Shown: positions 26,308-51,190, numbered from the stretch's first letter. The stretch is DNA of 64,000 nt from Candidatus Brennerbacteria bacterium (GCA_043799565.1 JAZDNP010000008.1:9553-73552), one strand, 5' to 3'. The notes: a model not told the origin generated them from the letters alone. Numbers and translations are program-made.

Positions 26308-27426
26308 TTACTGTGTCTCCGAACAAAGCCTTGCCCACGGCCGCGCAACCTGTGGCGGCAACGTGGGGCCATAGACTCCGTGGAGATAATCCACGTACCC
26401 TTTCGCCCTTGCACGAAGGTTCTCGTCAAAGATGGCGCGGTGAATGATAGCGCGTATCTTCCGTATCTCCTTCTTCGGCACGCTCACCGAATCACCCGGC
26501 AAACGTTTTGATCCGTCCCGCGACCCGATATGCACCAGTCGAAGCCCCGTCACAAGCGGTGCAATCTGCCTGCGGTCGAAGAATAGTGTTTTATCCCTAT
26601 TGAACCGGAACACTCCTTCTTCTTCCACTATGGCCATGAACGCTTCAACGTCGGAAACCGCGATGGGGGTCGCCGAGGAAATGGTAAAGTCGTCGGCGTA
26701 CACGGATACGCGCACCGCGATACCCTTCTCCTCAAACCATTGCTGTGCCATTTGCGGGACTCCGTAGTGTGAAAGCACGAGGTCCAAAAGGAATGGTGAT
26801 GTCGGCGCGCCCTGTGGTAATGCCCCCCGATACGTCACGAGCGGTATCAATGTATCAAGAAATTCCTCAAGCACCTGATGGTGTTTCACGTTCCGTAACC
26901 ACTTGGGCGGCGGACCGGGCAGAAGAAGTTTCCGAAACCATTTTGCCTTTCTCGTGGAAAACAGGGGTGGGCGCGGATAATCACGTCTCCCCTCTTTACT
27001 CACATCGGCGGCAAGGAGCCGGCACGTGAGTACTTCCGTGGCCACAATCTGTGCGAGCACTTTCCGCACTACAACTCCGGTCACTGAAGGGAACGCGTCC
27101 TTGAGGTCCAGCCGTACCACGTACCGCGCATCGGCGCGCGCATGAAGGCGCGCGTTCGTCACTGAAGAGCGCCCCGGCAGAAATCCGTGGATCTGTGGCG
27201 CGAGCCATCCTTGCTGCCATATCCGATAGAGGAAATACTGCAGAAACTTCCGCTGGAACCTTTTCACGATAGGGTACGGAACCGCGATAGACCGCACGCC
27301 GCCACGCGGTTTCCTTTTCTTGTGGACCTCGTAATGGTCCTGGAACCGGATCGCGTGCTCGAGTTTGGTCTCGGGCCACCCCAACACGCCCGCGAGCAAT
27401 TGCGTGCCGTTGAATAGATAATGCAC
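26308..27426 (-). CDS. Retron-type reverse transcriptase
   Basis: RT1 KRKPRGGVRSIAVP; RT2 HGFLPGRSSVTNARLHA (NAxxH); RT3 LDLKDAFPSV; RT4 LPQGAPTSP; RT5 YADD; VTG triplet after RT7; 372 aa, no maturase/endonuclease domain; GGGAGGTG SD. Confidence 0.85.
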   Translation of the reverse strand: MHYLFNGTQLLAGVLGWPETKLEHAIRFQDHYEVHKKRKPRGGVRSIAVPYPIVKRFQRKFLQYFLYRIWQQGWLAPQIHGFLPGRSSVTNARLHARADARYVVRLDLKDAFPSVTGVVVRKVLAQIVATEVLTCRLLAADVSKEGRRDYPRPPLFSTRKAKWFRKLLLPGPPPKWLRNVKHHQVLEEFLDTLIPLVTYRGALPQGAPTSPFLLDLVLSHYGVPQMAQQWFEEKGIAVRVSVYADDFTISSATPIAVSDVEAFMAIVEEEGVFRFNRDKTLFFDRRQIAPLVTGLRLVHIGSRDGSKRLPGDSVSVPKKEIRKIRAIIHRAIFDENLRARAKGYVDYLHGVYGPTLPPQVARPWARLCSETQ

Positions 27427-27970
27427 GTTACTTCACCTCCCTTCTCCGTATTTTGATAAAGAACGGGCGTGGAGCGACCACTACAGGATCGCTCCACATG
27501 AGTGTGCTTGTCTCAGAGACCGTCAGGAAAGTTGAGATGGGTTGACTTCCGCCCGTTCGAGTTCCCTGCGATGCGGAGTGACTGCTCCGCAAGGTGCGAA
27601 TGGTCGAATGTCGGAGTTGATGGCGGCGAACCGTCCGGATGTTGCGCCGCTGATTCCCAACCGTTCCTCCGGCAGCCAGGTACTGACCACCGTTCCTCAA
27701 AAGAAAAGTACAACAGGATAAAACTCAAGCGACACCTTGCTCACAACCGAAAAGCCGAGGTTGTCAGCTTGCCCACCGTAAGCGTAGGGGTGAGGGTGGG
27801 GTGCGGTCAAGTTTTATCGGTGCAGGTCGTGAAACCGCGGGCGTGAGCTCGCGGATGAACGACCGCGATTGACTGGTGCGCCCGGTGGGCGCACCTTGCC
27901 GACACAACCGCCATGGTGCCGCTCGCGGAAAGCCCCACGCGTGAGCGTGGGGTTCGCCGCGCGGCCGGTT
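27427..27970 (-). ncRNA. Candidate retron non-coding RNA region (msr-msd-like): ORF-free, hairpin-rich leader of the RT gene
   Basis: 544 nt with no plausible ORF on the RT strand; multiple perfect hairpins (27934-27953, 27876-27896, 27479-27507), a 9-bp long-range inverted repeat CGAACGGGCG...CGCCCGTTC enclosing two hairpins just upstream of the RT SD, and ~18-nt direct repeats; exact RNA boundaries unknown. Confidence 0.45.
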
Positions 27971-29917
27971 TTATTCCTTCAGTTTCCCCAGGGCATCCCG
28001 GAGCGCGCTCTGCAAACCCTTAATGTCCGGCTCGCCATCGTCCCACGAGGGTTTTTTGTTTTCCTTCGCCTCCGTGGGCGTAAGTTCACTGAGACGCAGC
28101 TTGTGCTCTTCCTCTTCGCTCGCGACGGATGGACTCGTGTTAACATCCCGAAGAATAGACGCACGGCGTACCGGACTGGCCGGCGCTGTTTCGCGAGGAG
28201 GCGTGGGTGAACGGGCGTGTTCCGGTCTCGGACCCAAAGAAGAAACGGGACGTGGCCTTTCTTCACGCGGAGCCGCAGGTGGGCGCGGCCCTACCTCTGC
28301 TGACGGGCGCGGCACCGGAGCACCACTGCGTCCACCGAACTCAATGCCGAGTTTGGCAAGATCCGCCATATTACCCGCCTCTTCACGCGCAGATGGCGCG
28401 CGTGGTACCCGTACTGGCTGCAACTCGCCCGCTTTTATTTTTTTCAAACAATCCTGACAGTATACAGGCCGTCCCGGCAAAGGCTTGAAAGGCACCGTGG
28501 TCACTTTATTGCACGCAGAGCACGTTACTTCAAATTTCCCCTCCACTCCTCCCCCTGACTGAGAAGTAAATCCCCCCTCTCCCGAAGCCGGAGGGCCACC
28601 ACTACTTTCGCCCATAATGCCGCCTGCCCAGCGTGAGATTTCTTCCTCCACTGCCTGGCGGGACTTCGCATAGCGCCTGCGTGATTCCGAAATCACCATC
28701 TCCACGGTACTTTCGGAGCTTTCCACCTTGAACGGCGGGAGGGTATGTGCGGAAAACGGGCGCGAGGTTACGCCGTCCACCATAAGTTTCAGATAGATGG
28801 TGTAGTTCGGCAGATTCACAATATCTTCCGGCAGAAGCTCCGGAGTGAATTCCTGTTCTAAAAATTCAGCGTCTGCCGCACCCACGCGGAACACCACCAT
28901 AGTCCCCACGTTGCCGAACACCGCATCGCGCACCTTCGTAGATACGTCCGTCACAAGCTGGCCGATATACTGGTGTGCAAGGATGAGGTCTAGGCGGTAT
29001 TTCCGCGATTCTGAAAGAATGCCCGCAAATGAATCGGTCGCAAAGTTTTGGAACTCGTCTACGTAGAGGTAAAAGTCCACACGCTCTTCCTCGGGAATAC
29101 GCACGCGCTCCATCGCGGCGAGTTGAATCTTCGTAATGAGCATCGCACCTAAGAGTGCCGAGTTGTCCTCTCCAATACGCCCCTTAGATACGTTCACAAG
29201 AAATATCTTCCCGTCGTTCATTATCTTGAAAATATCCAACGTGCTTTGCGGCTGGCCCACCACATTCCTAATCATCGCGGTGGAAAGGAATTGACCCACT
29301 TTGTTCTGAATAGGTGCGATGGCTTCGTTCCTAAACTGATCGCGCCATTCTTCAAATTCGTTCAACCAAAACGAGCGCACCACCGGGTCTTTTACGTTCG
29401 CAAGCATCTGCTGGCGATATTGCTTGTCCACTAAAATGCGGCTGATACCGAGAAGCGTGGAACCGGGCGTATCTAAAAGCGCCAGCACCGCGTTGTTCAG
29501 AATGTATTCCATGCGCGCGGACCATGTGCCCGCCCATATCTTCGTGAAAATACCCATGAGCCCCGAAGCCACGAGGTGTTTGTATTTCGGGTCTGGCAAT
29601 TCCAGCACGTTGAACCCCATCGGGAACTCGCTGTCCGCGGGATTAAAATACACCACGTCCTTCAGGCGCTCTTTCGGTATCTTTTTCAAAATCGACTCCA
29701 CCAACTCACCATGCGGGTCCACTACGCATACCCCCTCACCATTCGCAATGTCCTGGATGATGAGGTTGTGGAGCATGGCGCTCTTCCCCGTCCCGGTCTT
29801 CCCGATGACGTACATGTGCTGCCTCCGGTCGGTGCGCTTGATGCCGAAAAGCTGATTTTTGTTCCGGAAATCTATGCGTCCGAAGTAGGCAACGTTCTTT
29901 TCAGGAGCGTCTTCCAT
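27971..29917 (-). CDS. VirD4/TraD-like (FtsK-HerA superfamily) P-loop ATPase with C-terminal zinc ribbon and Pro/Arg-rich tail
   Basis: Walker A GKTGTGKS, Walker B-like VDEFQNF, TraG-D_C-like region; CSACNK-x17-CQDC ribbon; low-complexity P/R-rich C-terminal ~150 aa; paralog at 62862..end of window. Confidence 0.8.
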   Translation of the reverse strand: MEDAPEKNVAYFGRIDFRNKNQLFGIKRTDRRQHMYVIGKTGTGKSAMLHNLIIQDIANGEGVCVVDPHGELVESILKKIPKERLKDVVYFNPADSEFPMGFNVLELPDPKYKHLVASGLMGIFTKIWAGTWSARMEYILNNAVLALLDTPGSTLLGISRILVDKQYRQQMLANVKDPVVRSFWLNEFEEWRDQFRNEAIAPIQNKVGQFLSTAMIRNVVGQPQSTLDIFKIMNDGKIFLVNVSKGRIGEDNSALLGAMLITKIQLAAMERVRIPEEERVDFYLYVDEFQNFATDSFAGILSESRKYRLDLILAHQYIGQLVTDVSTKVRDAVFGNVGTMVVFRVGAADAEFLEQEFTPELLPEDIVNLPNYTIYLKLMVDGVTSRPFSAHTLPPFKVESSESTVEMVISESRRRYAKSRQAVEEEISRWAGGIMGESSGGPPASGEGGFTSQSGGGVEGKFEVTCSACNKVTTVPFKPLPGRPVYCQDCLKKIKAGELQPVRVPRAPSAREEAGNMADLAKLGIEFGGRSGAPVPRPSAEVGPRPPAAPREERPRPVSSLGPRPEHARSPTPPRETAPASPVRRASILRDVNTSPSVASEEEEHKLRLSELTPTEAKENKKPSWDDGEPDIKGLQSALRDALGKLKE

Positions 29918-34030: not shown

Positions 34031-35071
34031 TTATGCCGCAACCGTATGGAGATCCGCCGCAACCGCTTGAAAACGCTTCATCGCTTCCTCAAGTGCTCCC
34101 TCGTCACCTCGGGTCTCGGCGAGACGCACATCGCGCCGCGCACTTTCCTGTCGCCGCTTCAAAACCGCGATCTTCAACTGTGTTATTAAATCCTTATATT
34201 CGCGCGCGAGCGCATCCTTCGGGAGCCGTGCGATGAGATAGGATGCCTGCATCTCAAACGCCTGTGCCGACTGGGAAGCCGGCTCTTCAAAAGCTTTCCG
34301 AATATGATCGGGAAGCCATTCTTTGTTTTCCGTGATTGTAGCAAGAAATTCAGGCGCGGTAAAGGCGACGACACCAAGACGGTTTGCAACCATTTCCAAT
34401 CTTCCTTCCGCTTCCCGCTCTGGCGTGATCTCTGCGACCGGTACGGGCTTCGCATCCACAGGGGTCATTTCAAACTCTTCCAAAAGCGCTACTTCCGAAA
34501 TGTGGGACGCGGCCGCAAGTTCTTTTACCGTCGTCATCTGCTCCACCGCGCTCGGCAACTTTTTTATTTTTGAAAGAAGTGAGCGAAGCACGCGCTTCAC
34601 GACTGCGGTGTCACCCACGTCTTTATCCGAAAAATAGTGTTTGAAAAGCATGCGGAACGCAGGCGCGGCCGTTTGTACCGCCTCCACGAGAATCTTCGGG
34701 TCCTTCACGGCAATTTCCGCAGGGTCCTTGGCTTCGCCGAGATCCATCGCTTTCACGTGAAAATCGAACGCATGGAAGGTATCCATCGCACGCTCCAGGG
34801 CGTGAAGTCCGGCCTCGTCGTTGTCAAAAGAAAGCACTACGCTGTCCGCAATGCGCCGCAAACGTTCCAGGTGGTGGGCGGTAAGCGCAGTACCCGAAAC
34901 TGCAACCACATTTTTCACTCCCGATTGCCAGCACATCAAAAGGTCCATCTGACCTTCCACAAAAACCGCTTCCCGCGCCGTCGCAATATCGCGCTTCGTC
35001 GCGTGAAGACCATACAGTATCTTCGATTTTGAAAAGATGGGTGTCTCGGGACTATTCACATATTTTCCCAC
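34031..35071 (-). CDS. dnaG: DNA primase DnaG, C-terminal fragment (TOPRIM domain onwards); frame-disrupted
   Basis: KYVNSPETPIF, EGQMDLL, SFDNDEAG TOPRIM motifs; the reported start is GTG inside the 3' end of the N-terminal fragment ORF, in a different frame. Confidence 0.8.
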   Translation of the reverse strand: MGKYVNSPETPIFSKSKILYGLHATKRDIATAREAVFVEGQMDLLMCWQSGVKNVVAVSGTALTAHHLERLRRIADSVVLSFDNDEAGLHALERAMDTFHAFDFHVKAMDLGEAKDPAEIAVKDPKILVEAVQTAAPAFRMLFKHYFSDKDVGDTAVVKRVLRSLLSKIKKLPSAVEQMTTVKELAAASHISEVALLEEFEMTPVDAKPVPVAEITPEREAEGRLEMVANRLGVVAFTAPEFLATITENKEWLPDHIRKAFEEPASQSAQAFEMQASYLIARLPKDALAREYKDLITQLKIAVLKRRQESARRDVRLAETRGDEGALEEAMKRFQAVAADLHTVAA

Positions 35072-35718
35072 CCCCTCTCGGTCGCCCGAGGGTAAATGCG
35101 CCCGGTAAACGCTACCACGCGCCCCACCGCGTTCATAAGCGGGAACATAATGCGATTTTCAAACCGGTCACGATGGAGCCCTCCGGTTTTAAGCGCCAAC
35201 CCCGACCGCACGATATCGTCCACCGAAAAACCTTTCTGGATGAGATACAACGTAAGCGATTCCCCGCCAGGGGCAAATCCAAGTCCAAACATCTTCGCCG
35301 TTTCTCCCGTAAGGCCACGGGATTTCAGATATTCCTTCGCCTCAACCGATTCCACGAGCGCACGCTCGTAAAATGCGCGCGCCTCGTCGTGGAGCGTGTA
35401 GAGTACGCCGAACTCACGTTCGTGCGCGGGGTTCAGTGATTGGAGCGTAAGACCGACCTTATCCGCGAGAAATTTGAGCGCCTCCGGGAACTCCATGTTC
35501 TCGTAGCGCATCACAAACGAAATAGTATCGCCGCCCGCACTACAGCCGAAACAGTGCCACGATTTCCGGTCCGGCGACACAATAAACGACGGGGTTTTTT
35601 CGGGGTGAAAAGGACAGAGCGCCTTGAAATTCTTTCCCGCCGGCTGGAGTGAGAGATAGCCGCGGATGACCTCCACCACATCCAATCGTTCTTTCAATCG
35701 ATCTACATCGCGGTTCAT
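35056..35718 (-). CDS. dnaG: DNA primase DnaG, N-terminal fragment (zinc-binding and RNA-polymerase N-terminal region); frame-disrupted
   Basis: CPFHPEKTPSF...WHCFGCSAGGD zinc ribbon; start at internal Met MNRDVDRLKERL (35718); ORF track extends to 35988 across the RRM-protein gene. Confidence 0.8.
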   Translation of the reverse strand: MNRDVDRLKERLDVVEVIRGYLSLQPAGKNFKALCPFHPEKTPSFIVSPDRKSWHCFGCSAGGDTISFVMRYENMEFPEALKFLADKVGLTLQSLNPAHEREFGVLYTLHDEARAFYERALVESVEAKEYLKSRGLTGETAKMFGLGFAPGGESLTLYLIQKGFSVDDIVRSGLALKTGGLHRDRFENRIMFPLMNAVGRVVAFTGRIYPRATERGWENM

Positions 35719-35800
35719 TGTTTTGAGTGTACCTCCGCTATGGCGTTTGCCGCAAACAAAAACCCCGACCAAAGGTCGGGATTCTTGTATAGGAGCTGAA

Positions 35801-36124
35801 TTAGCCCCGGTCGTATCCACCACCAAACCCACGGCCTCCACCGAAGCCACCGCGACCCCCTCCTGCACCTCCTTCCTCGCGGGGGCGAGCTTCGTTGACC
35901 GTAAGTTTCCGACCACCGATGTCCCGGCCATTGAGTTTCTCAATGGCGGCATCAGCTTCAGAGTCGGAAGACATCTCAACAAATCCAAAGCCTTTTGAAC
36001 GGCCGGAGAATTTGTCGGTGATGACGGTGGCGGACGACACGGTTCCTGCCTCCGCGAACATGTCCTTAAGTTCGGACTCGTTCGTCGAGTAGGGCAGGTT
36101 CCCTACGTAAAGTCGTTTCGCCAT
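35801..36124 (-). CDS. RRM-type RNA-binding protein with Gly-rich C-terminus
   Basis: RNP2 LYVGNL and RNP1 KGFGFVEM; GGAGGGRGGFGGGRGFGGG tail. Confidence 0.88.
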   Translation of the reverse strand: MAKRLYVGNLPYSTNESELKDMFAEAGTVSSATVITDKFSGRSKGFGFVEMSSDSEADAAIEKLNGRDIGGRKLTVNEARPREEGGAGGGRGGFGGGRGFGGGYDRG

Positions 36125-48640: not shown

Positions 48641-49507
48641 CTATGATAGTGATTCTACGCCGCCCGTGTCAAAACCGCCCACCTGTGGATAATCGGGGGC
48701 CGGCGGAGAGGGCGGATCGTTAAAGTACCGCACCGGAACCTCTGGAATTTCGCCCTGTGCAATGACCTCTTCCGCGAGACGCTCGTAGGCGAAGGCGCCG
48801 GGGCTCTGCGGAGCGTACAACATGATGGGCTTCCGAAACTGCGGCGCCTCGGCGAGCGCGACCGAGCGCGGTATCTCCACGTTATACACATGATGAGGAA
48901 ATCGCTTCCGTATCTCCCGTGCAATCTCGCGCGAGAGTTTCTCGCGTTTGTCATACATCGTGAGAAGCGCGCCGCCAACCTTCAGGTCGTGGCCTAAATT
49001 GTTCCGCACGAGGTTGATGGTTTGGATAAGCTGGTCCAATCCTTCCAAACTCAAATACTCGCACTGGATGGGTACCACCACTTCCCCCGCCGCCATAAGC
49101 GCATTCACGGTCAGAAGATGCAGACTAGGACCGAGGTCAATAACGATAAAATCGTAACTACTTCCCACTTTTTCCACGAAATTGCGAAGCACACGTTCGC
49201 GCTCCGGCACTTCCACCAGCTCTATCAAGGCCCCCGCAAGATCGGCGGATGCCGGCACCGCATGAAGGTGCGTAAGATACGTCGGCTTGATGACGCGTTC
49301 ATGCGGCACGCCCGCAAGAAGCGCGTGGTAGATGGTCTCGTCCGAAGCATGGACAACGCCGAGACACATCGTTGCGTTGAACTGCGGGTCAAAATCAATG
49401 AGGAGCGTTTTCTTACCGCGCATCGCAAGGTACGACGCAAGGTTCACCGCAGTCGTGGTTTTCCCCACTCCGCCTTTCTGGTTCAATATCGCGATAACGC
49501 GCGCCAT
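48641..49507 (-). CDS. parA: Chromosome partitioning ATPase ParA/Soj with extended C-terminal tail
   Basis: Deviant Walker A NQKGGVGKTTTAVNLA; ~35-aa Pro-rich tail. Confidence 0.92.
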   Translation of the reverse strand: MARVIAILNQKGGVGKTTTAVNLASYLAMRGKKTLLIDFDPQFNATMCLGVVHASDETIYHALLAGVPHERVIKPTYLTHLHAVPASADLAGALIELVEVPERERVLRNFVEKVGSSYDFIVIDLGPSLHLLTVNALMAAGEVVVPIQCEYLSLEGLDQLIQTINLVRNNLGHDLKVGGALLTMYDKREKLSREIAREIRKRFPHHVYNVEIPRSVALAEAPQFRKPIMLYAPQSPGAFAYERLAEEVIAQGEIPEVPVRYFNDPPSPPAPDYPQVGGFDTGGVESLS

Positions 49508-49570: not shown

Positions 49571-49653
49571 GCCCGGGTGGCGGAATGGTATACGCGCACG
49601 ACTCAAAATCGTGTGATCGCAAGGTCTTGTGGGTTCGAGTCCCACCCCGGGCA
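49571..49653 (+). tRNA. tRNA-Leu (anticodon CAA)
   Basis: Class II tRNA: acceptor GCCCGGG/CCCGGGC, anticodon stem CACGA/TCGTG loop CTCAAAA, long variable arm, T-arm GTGGG-TTCGAGT-CCCAC, discriminator A. Confidence 0.85.
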
Positions 49654-49737
49654 CCGAATGTAACTTTGTAGGAATTGATGCCGCGCCCATTGCCAAAACA
49701 CCCGAGGCCGTACCAAGACGGATATTCTGTCTTCGGA

Positions 49738-50106
49738 ATGCGGAGTTTCGAACTTCCCCTTGGAACCGGCAACATTCATGTTTGGCCGCAACTTGTATGG
49801 GACTTTCTCAATGTTCATTTTACAGATACGGCAGTTTTAGCTTTGCTGTTTGGAATTCTGTTTCTGACAAAATCAACCCCACAAACATCAAGAAGCTATA
49901 AGATGATATTACTCGGCGCGGTGATATTTACGGCTTTTTTGATGTTTGGACATTTTTCATTTTTAATCTTTAACATAGACCCGACTGGAGGGTATTATTC
50001 TAGATTTACCAGAATAGAACTGCTTAGCCAATACTGGTTCCAGTGGGACTTCTGGTCCGAACTGGTAATTTTAGTAGGCGCGTTGTGGCTGCTTTTTAAA
50101 GGCTAG
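49738..50106 (+). CDS. Small hypothetical membrane protein in an A+T-rich insert
   Basis: Two predicted TM helices; ORF track start at 49675 overlaps the tRNA flank, so trimmed to the internal ATG; weak SD. Confidence 0.3.
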   Translation: MRSFELPLGTGNIHVWPQLVWDFLNVHFTDTAVLALLFGILFLTKSTPQTSRSYKMILLGAVIFTAFLMFGHFSFLIFNIDPTGGYYSRFTRIELLSQYWFQWDFWSELVILVGALWLLFKG

Positions 50107-50287
50107 TAGAAAATTGGCGTTACGGCGTATTTCGCTTTGCGAAATACGAAATTCGGCGGCGGCGGAAAGCTTCGCGCGATTTGATTTTTATACTAGTGGG
50201 GCTCGAAGGGAACCCGAAGCGCTCGTGGGACGAGAGGAAGCGATGGTCCCTGGCTTAGAAGGAGACGCTTTGCGTCGTGGGAGAAGG

Positions 50288-50304
50288 AGTCCCACCCCGG
50301 GCAC
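50288..50304 (+). repeat. Direct repeat of tRNA-Leu 3' end (17/17 nt, extended imperfectly to ~30 nt)
   Basis: AGTCCCACCCCGGGCAC identical to 49638..49654; preceding GTGGG-loop resembles a degenerate T-arm. Confidence 0.85.
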
Positions 50305-50323
50305 AAAAGGTATAATAAACGCG

Positions 50324-50581
50324 ATGTTCGACATCTTCTTTCCTCTCAAACGAAAGGCGCTCGCGGCGGAAAAGCTGGATAAACTTCTCCGCGAAATCCC
50401 GGCGCTCTCGCCGGAAGAACGAGAATATGTGGAAGCGGCGTTTGGCCGTTTTCAGGCGAACGGCATCTCAAAACTCGAGGCCGAACAGGTTATCCGCGGG
50501 CTGAAGATCAACTACAAAGATTCATTGGAACAAAGCGAGGTGGAGAAAATAAAGCTCAAAATCCTTTCGTTTTTCGTATAA
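50324..50581 (+). CDS. Small hypothetical protein (85 aa)
   Basis: TATAAT at 50311-50316, 7 nt before the ATG (leaderless-type arrangement); ORF track's upstream extension covers the repeat/non-coding region. Confidence 0.45.
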   Translation: MFDIFFPLKRKALAAEKLDKLLREIPALSPEEREYVEAAFGRFQANGISKLEAEQVIRGLKINYKDSLEQSEVEKIKLKILSFFV

Positions 50582-50597: not shown

Positions 50598-50640
50598 TAT
50601 GTCTTCAAAAAACTCCCATATGGGAGTTTTTTGAAGACAT
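50598..50640. terminator. Perfect ~20-bp palindrome acting as bidirectional terminator between convergent genes
   Basis: ATGTCTTCAAAAAACTCCCA-TA-TGGGAGTTTTTTGAAGACAT; A/T tracts on both sides. Confidence 0.7.
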
Positions 50641-50653
50641 TGATTTTTCTATT

Positions 50654-51190
50654 CTAGCTCGCAGACACTTTTACGGTCCGAGGAACCTTTTTTAGAATCC
50701 AGTATACCGCGAGTACAGAGAGGGCGCCCACCACGGCGCCCGCAACAATGTCGGTCGGCCAATGTACGCCCGCGATGACGCGTGCGAGACCGTTTATGAG
50801 CGCGAGCCCTCCAAACCAGTATCCCCACTTTCGGTCGATAAACCACACCGCAAGTGCGAGGGCAAAGAAAATCGCCGCGTGTCCCGACGGAAAGGCGTAC
50901 GTCATGCTCTGTTCCACCAAGGGCTCAAACCCGAGTGCCACGAACGGCCGCGGGCGCTCCACAAAATAACGGATGAGCTCGGTCAGAAATCCACGCGAAA
51001 CAAGAAGCGTAAGTGCAATGAAGATAAGATTCTCCAAACGCTTTACCGGTGAGGAACTCTTAAAAACGAGCACCAGCGCCATAAGCGCGAGCCCCCACGG
51101 GAGATAACGTGCGGCAACGATAATAAACCAATCGCTCACCGCGGAAATGCTCGCCCACGAGTGGAGAAAATTGAAGAGCGCGCTGTCCAT
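50654..51190 (-). CDS. PAP2-family membrane phosphatase (undecaprenyl-diphosphatase-like)
   Basis: PSGH and SRVIAGVHWPTD PAP2 motifs in a 6-TM protein. Confidence 0.85.
   Translation of the reverse strand: MDSALFNFLHSWASISAVSDWFIIVAARYLPWGLALMALVLVFKSSSPVKRLENLIFIALTLLVSRGFLTELIRYFVERPRPFVALGFEPLVEQSMTYAFPSGHAAIFFALALAVWFIDRKWGYWFGGLALINGLARVIAGVHWPTDIVAGAVVGALSVLAVYWILKKVPRTVKVSAS

Follow-up and report, generated by a model that had tools for sequence, protein, structure and literature searches.

The window analyzed here is a 64,000-nt stretch of DNA from a Candidatus Brennerbacteria bacterium (GCA_043799565.1, JAZDNP010000008.1:9553-73552), in which a complete tRNA-Leu(CAA) gene is followed by a 650-bp insert that ends in an exact second copy of the tRNA's 3' end. 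The insert is interpreted, with moderate confidence, as a miniature non-autonomous insertion element residing in the tRNA gene's 3' end. Among related genomes, the insertion or absence of such DNA is precise at the repeat boundaries. The element carries a structured module, here called X, whose structure is conserved and covarying on the plus strand, and X recurs at tRNA-Leu genes of four isoacceptors, with both of its ends matched to the local tRNA. The coordinates of the features are collected in Table 1, and loci from other genomes and contigs are denoted by L numbers.

The direct repeat and the empty sites

The 17-mer AGTCCCACCCCGGGCAC is present in exactly two copies in the window, at 49638-49654 and 50288-50304, and none of 100 shuffles gave a match of this kind by chance. 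The repeat had been noticed in an earlier reading made from the DNA by itself (the sequence-only reading). It is real and is actually 18 nt long, as the identity reaches one base further to the left to give GAGTCCCACCCCGGGCAC, which spans the last four nucleotides of the T-loop, the 3' strand of the T-stem, the 3' strand of the acceptor stem, A73 and C74. The starts of the two copies are 650 bp apart, and the downstream copy is read as the displaced original 3' end of the tRNA. The same reading had correctly described the DNA between the copies as richer in A+T; the GC content is 0.36-0.46 over approximately 49700-50100 versus 0.50-0.60 in the flanks.

Close relatives (L133, L134, L136, L137 and L139) were reached via homologs of an 85-amino-acid (aa) protein that is encoded just downstream of the insert. 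In the closest of them, L137, the 85-aa protein is 89% identical to that of the window and the tRNA region shows 87% nucleotide identity. Here, the tRNA-Leu is followed directly by the flank that starts at 50305 in the window, the junction reading ...GGGCACC-AAAGGTATAATAAACGCG-ATG or, more fully, ...GAGTCCCACCCCGGGCACC-AAAGGTATAATAAACGCG-ATGTTCGACATCT. L139 and L134 are likewise empty, with the tRNA-Leu joined directly to a TATAAT-containing flank of the 50305 type. Since these sites are empty in close relatives, it was concluded that the DNA between the repeats is an insertion.

Pairs of filled and empty loci define the boundaries further. L133 and L136 have a common 123-nt spacer before the 85-aa gene and differ by exactly one unit, whose terminator segment, X core and repeat measure 51, 92 and 18 nt, respectively. 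In the pair L004/L007, the tRNA and its promoter are identical, and L007 additionally contains 72 bp of inserted DNA, for which the repeat measures 19 nt. At the distal repeat copy, L007 has the same CCA and flank as empty L004; hence, the proximal copy is the incoming one. In metagenomes, near-identical strains show both states: X is present in SRR22388039 and missing in SRR22388331, and ERZ27267809 is empty. The three empty sites thus have the junction of tRNA-Leu and 50305 flank that the sequence-only reading had led one to expect, and together with the two pairs they bear out its proposal that the repeats bound an insertion at the tRNA 3' end.

The recurrent unit and the structure of module X

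The insert had at first been treated as a single unit. Its constant part is, instead, the ~110-nt module X, which is present in relatives that do not have the open reading frame (ORF) of the insert. In L001 and L136, the whole unit measures ~160 bp and consists of terminator, X and repeat, the ORF being absent. Four parts make up the unit: a copy that replaces the tRNA from the T-loop through C74, an intrinsic terminator, a brief A/T-rich stretch containing a -10-like hexamer, and the structured core of X, which has ~90 nt. Because the unit supplies a replacement 3' end, the tRNA stays intact.

In the consensus fold, the stem P1 joins the 5' end of X to the first 9-11 nt of the repeat (50196-50204 with 50287-50295 in the window). 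P2 (50207-50220 with 50240-50251) contains GGGA/UCCC, or CGGA/UCCG in L001 and L114, and encloses a variable hairpin, and P3 (50254-50257 with 50283-50286) encloses a second variable hairpin. The 3' tail of X, CCCGGGCAC (50296-50304), is a 9-nt acceptor strand that remains unpaired. Homologous elements in relatives are 100-140 nt long, and the junction motifs of the core are conserved across lineages. A degenerate GTGGG loop, which had been likened to a T-arm, does exist in the window (GTGGG at 50278-50282, a 9-nt loop and CCCAC), but it is not the conserved pairing; the covarying helix is the long-range P1.

A covariance model, R1, was built from three X copies. It detected X in the window with 97.8 bits (E = 2e-22) as the sole match, and it also detected L001, L041, L113, L114 and L136 at 88-109 bits. 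The 64 kb contained one copy and no locus more than two, each of them behind a tRNA-Leu. In the five type-1 copies, the type to which X of the window belongs, 91% of the cells were paired and six pairs had changed on both sides. None of 500 shuffles equaled this covariation, and a control in which the partners were slid by 1-3 columns gave 44-55% paired cells. For all 12 X elements compared, the fold of the plus strand was the more stable of the two strands. X falls into at least three sequence types. Type-2 copies (L041a, L113a, L016, L042 and L039) contain a mimic of the acceptor 5' strand, and L041a folds into an acceptor stem, a side hairpin and P1, with its 'AC' end unpaired. Type-2 and type-1 units occur in tandem in L041 and L113.

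The matching of X to its tRNA concerns both ends. At its 3' end, X repeats the tRNA sequence that extends from the T-loop through C74, while the 5' arm approximates the reverse complement of the T-loop and T-stem region in the window (Table 1) and is an exact reverse complement of the local tRNA over 15 nt in L114 (GAGGGGGACTCGAAC) and over 14 nt in L040 (GGCGGGATTTGAAC). It was observed that the 5' arm tracks the local T-stem through the combinations GTGGG/CCCAC, GGGGG/CCCCC, GCGGG/CCCGC and GGAGG/CCTCT. The arm commonly reaches GAA(C), the complement of G53-C56, which is beyond the pairing range of the 3' arm of X itself. Exact repeats of the 3' end of the own tRNA were found downstream of 10 of 71 tRNA-Leu genes and of 0 of 44 other tRNAs (Fisher p = 0.013, for cases that are not all independent). 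These repeats are 15-19 nt long and lie 54-632 nt downstream; the repeat of L114 has 32 nt and includes 14 nt of the 3' flank beyond the tRNA. The anticodons of the repeat-bearing tRNA-Leu genes are CAA, CAG (L114), GAG (L040 and L044) and TAA (L039). A strict regular-expression search for P1-type stems was weak, recovering just three known cases amid chance matches, because real P1 helices have bulges; a fuzzy search for degenerate repeat copies was too noisy for use.

X was also compared with known RNAs. No Rfam 15 match was obtained for X of the window, L039, L040, L113 or L114, even with E values up to 10, and ARAGORN did not detect X in its tRNA mode or in its tmRNA mode, the latter having been run on all loci. 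A likeness between the 5' arm and the D-loop analogue of tmRNA (GGAUUCGAC) was weighed and dropped. A resemblance of GGAAGUCCGUGGCUCC to the P4 motif of RNase P was likewise dropped, since no RNase P family matched.

The filler and its gene fragment

In the window, 541 bp of A+T-rich filler occupy the place of the ~50-bp terminator segment found in L001 (49 bp) and L136 (51 nt). On comparing the window with L001 by blastn, homology was seen up to 49654 and again from 50276 onward; the ParA proteins of the two are 91% identical. The ORF of the filler, which had been described as a small gene for a protein with two transmembrane (TM) segments, corresponds in fact to the C-terminal 132 codons of a gene for a 237-aa multi-TM protein. 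A tblastn search aligned it to residues 96-227 with 90% aa identity over 132 aa, and over 49704-50102 the nucleotide identity is 84-88% to genes that other Patescibacteria carry in three settings unrelated to one another. From these matches, the ORF was recognized as a 5'-truncated piece of a gene that seems to pass from lineage to lineage. No family was assigned to the 143-aa ORF by Pfam, NCBIfam or PADLOC, and no homolog of the fragment was found behind tRNA-Leu in loci L001-L080. The filler ORF is accordingly described as a pseudogene fragment of a putatively foreign gene, not as intact cargo, and the filler as a whole is a secondary capture replacing or expanding the terminator part. Outside the truncated ORF, the insert contains no other gene. 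The filler also holds a perfect hairpin with a 10-bp stem, whose presence had been noted earlier with coordinates one base off; it may be a leftover of the terminator.

The full-length family comprises 51 homologs, mostly of 237 aa, and is widespread in Patescibacteria. Its members in loci L115-L127 share 80-90% protein identity and 84-88% nucleotide identity across different candidate phyla. The gene was found in at least three unrelated neighborhoods, always beside a gene for a secreted or surface protein (PG_binding/CARDB, Peptidase_S8 or Beta_helix), and the family looks as if it had spread horizontally and recently.

Turnover at the site and searches for an integrase

Several copies of X show signs of turnover. 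In L016, L051, L041b, L113a and L113b, the tail has decayed and the core is intact, and in the L041 array the perfect repeat is found in the proximal unit. The identity of the X core is 83% between the window and L136 and 62-66% against L001 (62% for the window), and the 85-aa gene is 77-78% identical in all three pairs. Judged by these values, the similarity of X does not follow the host. Displaced 3' fragments of tRNA-Leu, unlike the resident tRNA, lie 30-110 nt past tRNA-Leu(CAA) in L003, L008 and L049. The fragment in L003 consists of a T-arm, the loop of which holds 31 inserted nt, and then ACCA, and those in L008 and L049 extend from the anticodon loop to the 3' end. The presence of displaced fragments in these other relatives indicates that the site is a general recombination hot spot, and the sequences point to recurrent recombination at tRNA-Leu.

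Other observations were made at the same site. Small hairpins of the form CCTGCC-GACG/NNNN-GGCAGG recur at differing positions past tRNA-Leu in L018, L041, L113 and L003, and in L113 such a hairpin splits the tail of X; these hairpins may be tiny palindromic mobile units. In one metagenome-assembled genome (MAG; GCA_016183535.1), the parA/tRNA-Leu pair (L002) and the 85-aa/PAP2 pair (L135) are on separate contigs. The assembly break, at most ~1.4 kb past the tRNA, suggests a variable or repeated segment at the hot spot.

The sequence-only reading had stated that no integrase is present. This was confirmed by Pfam searches of 20 ORFs of the window and by tblastn searches with two phage integrases of the window and 82 genome and metagenome loci, none of which gave a match. 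At the 71 tRNA-Leu genes, repeat-bounded elements did not exceed 650 bp. A comparison of the insert with phage and plasmid databases had been suggested in the same reading; blastn against such collections found nothing that matched. The exact 18-mer was found near a tyrosine integrase in two viral contigs, L128 and L129. In both (3430-3495 in L128, 4100-4150 in L129), it belongs to a partial tRNA-Leu(TAA) that runs from the anticodon loop to the 3' end and has exactly the T-arm and acceptor of the window. These 50-60-nt fragments are classical phage attachment sites (attP) of the tRNA-Leu type. X was not found in viral contigs bearing the 18-mer, and the 32 matches from a scan of viral contigs for the type-1 core motif were all attributed to chance by the covariance model and inspection. 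The locus had been called the classic attL/attR footprint of site-specific integration into a tRNA. The insertion itself stands, but recombination of the integrase type is not upheld; real viral attP sites differ.

Proposed mechanism and alternative explanations

If the insert is a miniature non-autonomous element, the unit would enter by recombination within the stretch that begins at the T-loop and extends to the 3' end, in the manner of tRNA-targeting integrative elements, and the catalyzing enzyme would be encoded elsewhere. The 5' arm of X would pair with the displaced tRNA 3' end to form P1 and would leave the 9-nt acceptor-strand tail; the folded P1, as single-stranded DNA (ssDNA) or RNA, may present a duplex copy of the tRNA half-site. 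Loss would be possible via recombination between the 18-nt repeats, and the 541 bp of captured DNA in this window would have taken the place of the terminator part or enlarged it. The sequence-only reading had left a choice between a decayed remnant and a miniature cassette; the latter comes closer.

A number of points speak against this interpretation. Because no recombinase, transposase or circular intermediate has been identified, mobility is read from patterns of presence and absence only, and one old insertion followed by repeated precise losses via the direct repeats could be put in its place. A model of the Campbell type needs ssDNA, RNA or a larger precursor, because a double-stranded circle of 72-160 bp is physically implausible. 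The folding of X in the window is not unusual when compared with shuffles (z = 0.07), and P3 forms just three of its four pairs there. The acceptor mimic of type 2 is no harder to explain by a tRNA-like RNA than by a recombination site. Lastly, the filler is without a repeat of its own; hence, it arrived by a different route than the unit.

The alternatives are taken in falling order of probability. It is rather unlikely that X is primarily a resident small RNA gene that is derived from, or resembles, tRNA-Leu. Such an RNA would have a -10-like element of its own for transcription or be co-transcribed with the tRNA, and it would undergo tRNA-like 3' processing. Selection or gene conversion would hold the repeat equal to the tRNA beside it, and absence would reflect loss through the direct repeats. 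The conserved junction motifs and covarying stems, along with the preference for the plus strand, are what would be expected of it, and terminators flank X, -10-like hexamers lie 1-4 nt upstream of X, and the acceptor mimic of type 2 and the tRNA-like fold of L041a with its unpaired end fit as well. However, tails decay while cores persist in the copies listed above, and identity between tail and tRNA is thus not needed. In addition, neither the closest relatives nor most tRNA-Leu genes have an X, two types of X occur in tandem at one locus, the new copy in L007 is the proximal and not the distal one, and X is detected neither by the Rfam tRNA model nor by ARAGORN.

A more far-reaching proposal, which is considered unlikely, is that X is the cis-acting self-targeting module of a new miniature mobile element and, as folded RNA or ssDNA, recognizes tRNA-Leu via both ends. 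The 5' arm would then act as the complement of the sense strand of T-loop and T-stem, and the 3' arm would match the sense strand itself, T-loop through C74. Insertion of the unit would fall to a recombinase or reverse transcriptase whose gene lies elsewhere, and the whole would amount to a system of the attC or guide kind, with a tRNA gene as its anchor, in bacteria of the candidate phyla.

A classical prophage or island with a tyrosine integrase, decayed until all but its attR-proximal arm was deleted, is quite an unlikely source of the insert. It would agree with the integrase-bearing viral contigs, which use the exact tRNA-Leu 3' end as attP, and with the displaced tRNA-Leu 3' halves at this hot spot. 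The block from the T-loop to the 3' end fits a known class of integrase crossover, with mycobacteriophage Ms6 as one example (PMC1762012). Partial tRNA genes are a known by-product of element integration (PMC9897764). A remnant of this kind is difficult to reconcile with the negative integrase, long-element and phage/plasmid searches, and random deletion would not yield the same ~160-bp unit in independent lineages and at four isoacceptors. Nor are the arms of integrase sites expected to have covarying hairpins or a tRNA-matched 5' arm. That X is a decayed tandem duplicate of the tRNA-Leu and its promoter is very improbable. In its favor, TTGATTTT is found upstream of each copy with almost no shift in register (648 versus 650 nt), type-2 X retains the acceptor 5' strand and a D-arm-like GG..AAC stretch, and the L114 repeat takes in part of the 3' flank. 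Against it, identity is near-random outside the perfect 18 nt, whereas neutral decay would affect all positions alike; the 5' arm has the antisense orientation relative to the T-loop (unambiguously so in L040, L114 and L042); the core motifs have been kept across lineages; and a search with the Rfam tRNA model gives no second match with E up to 10.

Patescibacteria have small genomes that are thought to be poor in mobile elements, and here a recurrent ~160-bp unit without a recombinase of its own targets tRNA-Leu, repairs the interrupted tRNA, brings a terminator and has a fold whose ends are matched to the target. If it is true that the fold serves as a recombination substrate or guide, the unit would be a very small programmable site-specific insertion system; if the fold is that of a tRNA-like small RNA, it would represent a new RNA family absent from Rfam 15. 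With regard to annotation, the second 'tRNA end' should not be counted as a gene, and the ORF of the insert is a fragment of a pseudogene.

Genomic neighborhood

The gene order around the site is relA, parB and parA (minus strand), tRNA-Leu (plus strand), the 85-aa gene, and then PAP2, rpsR, ssb, rpsF and rpoC (all on the minus strand). The immediate upstream neighbor of the tRNA and insert is thus parA, and the divergent parA/tRNA-Leu(CAA) pair is kept in ~58 of 80 related genome loci. The distance from tRNA-Leu to PAP2 is variable among relatives, from 0.27 to 4.3 kb. By its ParA homologs, the window belongs to the Patescibacteria (Paceibacteria; Brennerbacteria/Jorgensenbacteria-like), although a look-up of the exact ParA sequence gave no record.

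Table 1 Features at the tRNA-Leu(CAA) locus of the window
Feature	Position	Strand	Remarks
parA	48641-49507	-	Divergent from tRNA-Leu(CAA)
tRNA-Leu(CAA)	49571-49655	+	Complete; found by ARAGORN and Rfam tRNA model (60.3 bits); insertion target
Repeat copy 1, GAGTCCCACCCCGGGCAC	49637-49654	+	3' end of tRNA-Leu(CAA)
Filler, 541 bp, A+T-rich	49655-50195	+	Between tRNA and X; specific to this genome
5'-truncated gene fragment	49704-50106	+	Frame open; stop codon 50104-50106
Perfect hairpin	50126-50148	+	10-bp stem, 3-nt loop; no T-run after it
Module X, type 1	50196-50304	+	~110 nt; includes repeat copy 2
X 5' arm, GTGGGGCTCGAAG	50196-50208	+	Approximate reverse complement of tRNA G53-C65, GTTCGAGTCCCAC (11/13 match)
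Repeat copy 2, GAGTCCCACCCCGGGCAC	50287-50304	+	3' strand of P1 plus X tail
85-aa gene	50324-50581	+	TATAAT at 50311-50316 ahead of ATG; outside insertion
21-bp perfect palindrome	50599-50640		Bidirectional terminator between 85-aa gene and PAP2
PAP2 gene	50654-51190	-	

The small gene with a TATAAT start, which had been correctly placed at 50324 in the sequence-only reading, encodes the 85-aa protein. A record identical to this protein comes from a Candidatus Brennerbacteria MAG, and the ORF has no family match in Pfam, NCBIfam or PADLOC. At the empty sites L137, L139, L134, L004 and L025, the gene begins 15-25 nt past the 3' end of tRNA-Leu; it is a native neighbor of the tRNA and not part of the insertion. 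As the start is so close to the tRNA and TATAAT lies 7-8 nt ahead of the ATG in the window, L137 and L134, the gene is probably leaderless or cut out of a co-transcript with the tRNA.

Elsewhere in the window, a retron-type reverse transcriptase of 372 aa (26308-27426, minus strand) lies beside a HerA/VirD4-like ATPase of 648 aa with a CxxC-x17-CxxC domain (27971-29917, minus strand). The reverse transcriptase matches Pfam RVT_1 and PADLOC RT_X, RT_XIII and RT_II-A, and is under the retron cut-offs of NCBIfam. The 544-nt gap between the two genes (27427-27970) could hold a non-coding RNA, and the pair is a candidate for a retron-like defense locus. A link between X and this reverse transcriptase was considered and rejected, as the two are 23 kb apart and no repeat or structural tie was found. 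The DnaG primase is present as two overlapping ORFs (34031-35071 and 35056-35988, both on the minus strand), with the zinc finger and DNAG_N in one and Toprim in the other; the reason could be a frameshift, an error in sequencing or a gene that is truly split.

Comparison with known systems

The insert resembles integrative elements that use a tyrosine integrase to target tRNA 3' ends, such as that of Ms6. In both cases, the insertion is in the tRNA 3' end, the tRNA is kept intact, a direct repeat from the T-loop to the end bounds the insert, and empty sites are found in relatives. The differences are that there is no nearby integrase here, that the unit has just 160-650 bp, and that X is structured and covarying, with a 5' arm antisense to the T-loop. 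The viral tRNA-Leu attP sites also differ from X in that they begin at the anticodon loop and adjoin an integrase gene.

Cis-mobilizable elements (CIMEs), which are known from work on Streptococcus thermophilus, are att-flanked remnants of integrative and conjugative elements (ICEs) that have no recombination genes. The unit shares with CIMEs the attL/attR-like repeats and the want of its own recombinase, which is presumably served in trans. It is far smaller, however, and its conserved content is an RNA-like fold, not an ICE leftover; a parental ICE, or an integrative and mobilizable element, with the same att site was not found at the 71 tRNA-Leu loci.

In the attC sites of integrons, an inverse core, a variable loop and a core follow each other, and the core is repeated at the upstream boundary. 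In CALIN arrays (clusters of attC sites lacking an integron integrase), such cassettes occur without an adjacent recombinase, just as no recombinase adjoins X. The unit resembles an integron cassette in its layout: an upstream core, short or no cargo, an inverse core, a structured loop and a core, the site measuring ~100-140 nt. Imperfect inverted repeats form the outer helix (P1) with bulged bases, and the core recurs in the tRNA. Structure is kept more than sequence, units occur in tandem in L041 and L113, and the 5' arms of many relatives end in GAAC, opposite GTTC of the tRNA. Unlike attC, the target is the T-loop of tRNA-Leu and not attI, the shared core has 15-32 nt instead of 6-7 nt, and the interior of X is multi-branched with conserved junction motifs. 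The AAC...GTT and RYYYAAC/GTTRRRY signatures of attC are not seen, as the 5' arm of the window ends in GAAG and its 3' arm is without GTT; the tRNA target alone has GTTC. Furthermore, no IntI or other tyrosine recombinase was found, and the upstream gene is parA in the place of attI. CTX phage has a folded attP, which the P1 topology of X resembles.

The omega-RNA of TnpB has a 3' guide, and the type V-K CRISPR-associated transposons (CASTs) use a delocalized CRISPR RNA to target tRNA genes. X has a comparable arrangement, with a ~90-nt scaffold and, on its 3' side, 15-19 nt that are identical to a tRNA gene and that start, in the tRNA, just past GTT(C) of the T-loop. Unlike in these systems, no gene for TnpB, Cas12, IscB or a transposase flanks X at any locus, and the first 9 nt of the would-be guide, or half of it, are paired in P1. 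Miniature inverted-repeat transposable elements (MITEs), which have numerous copies in a genome, terminal inverted repeats and a short target-site duplication of fixed length, are different again, as X occurs singly in 64 kb, at most twice per locus, and with repeats that vary from 15 to 32 nt. Among known RNA families (tRNA, tmRNA, YrlA, ribozymes and others in Rfam 15), X matches none. Taken together, X appears to correspond to no described RNA family or mobile element. While tRNA-targeted insertion is a known theme, the conserved X module represents a new form of it.

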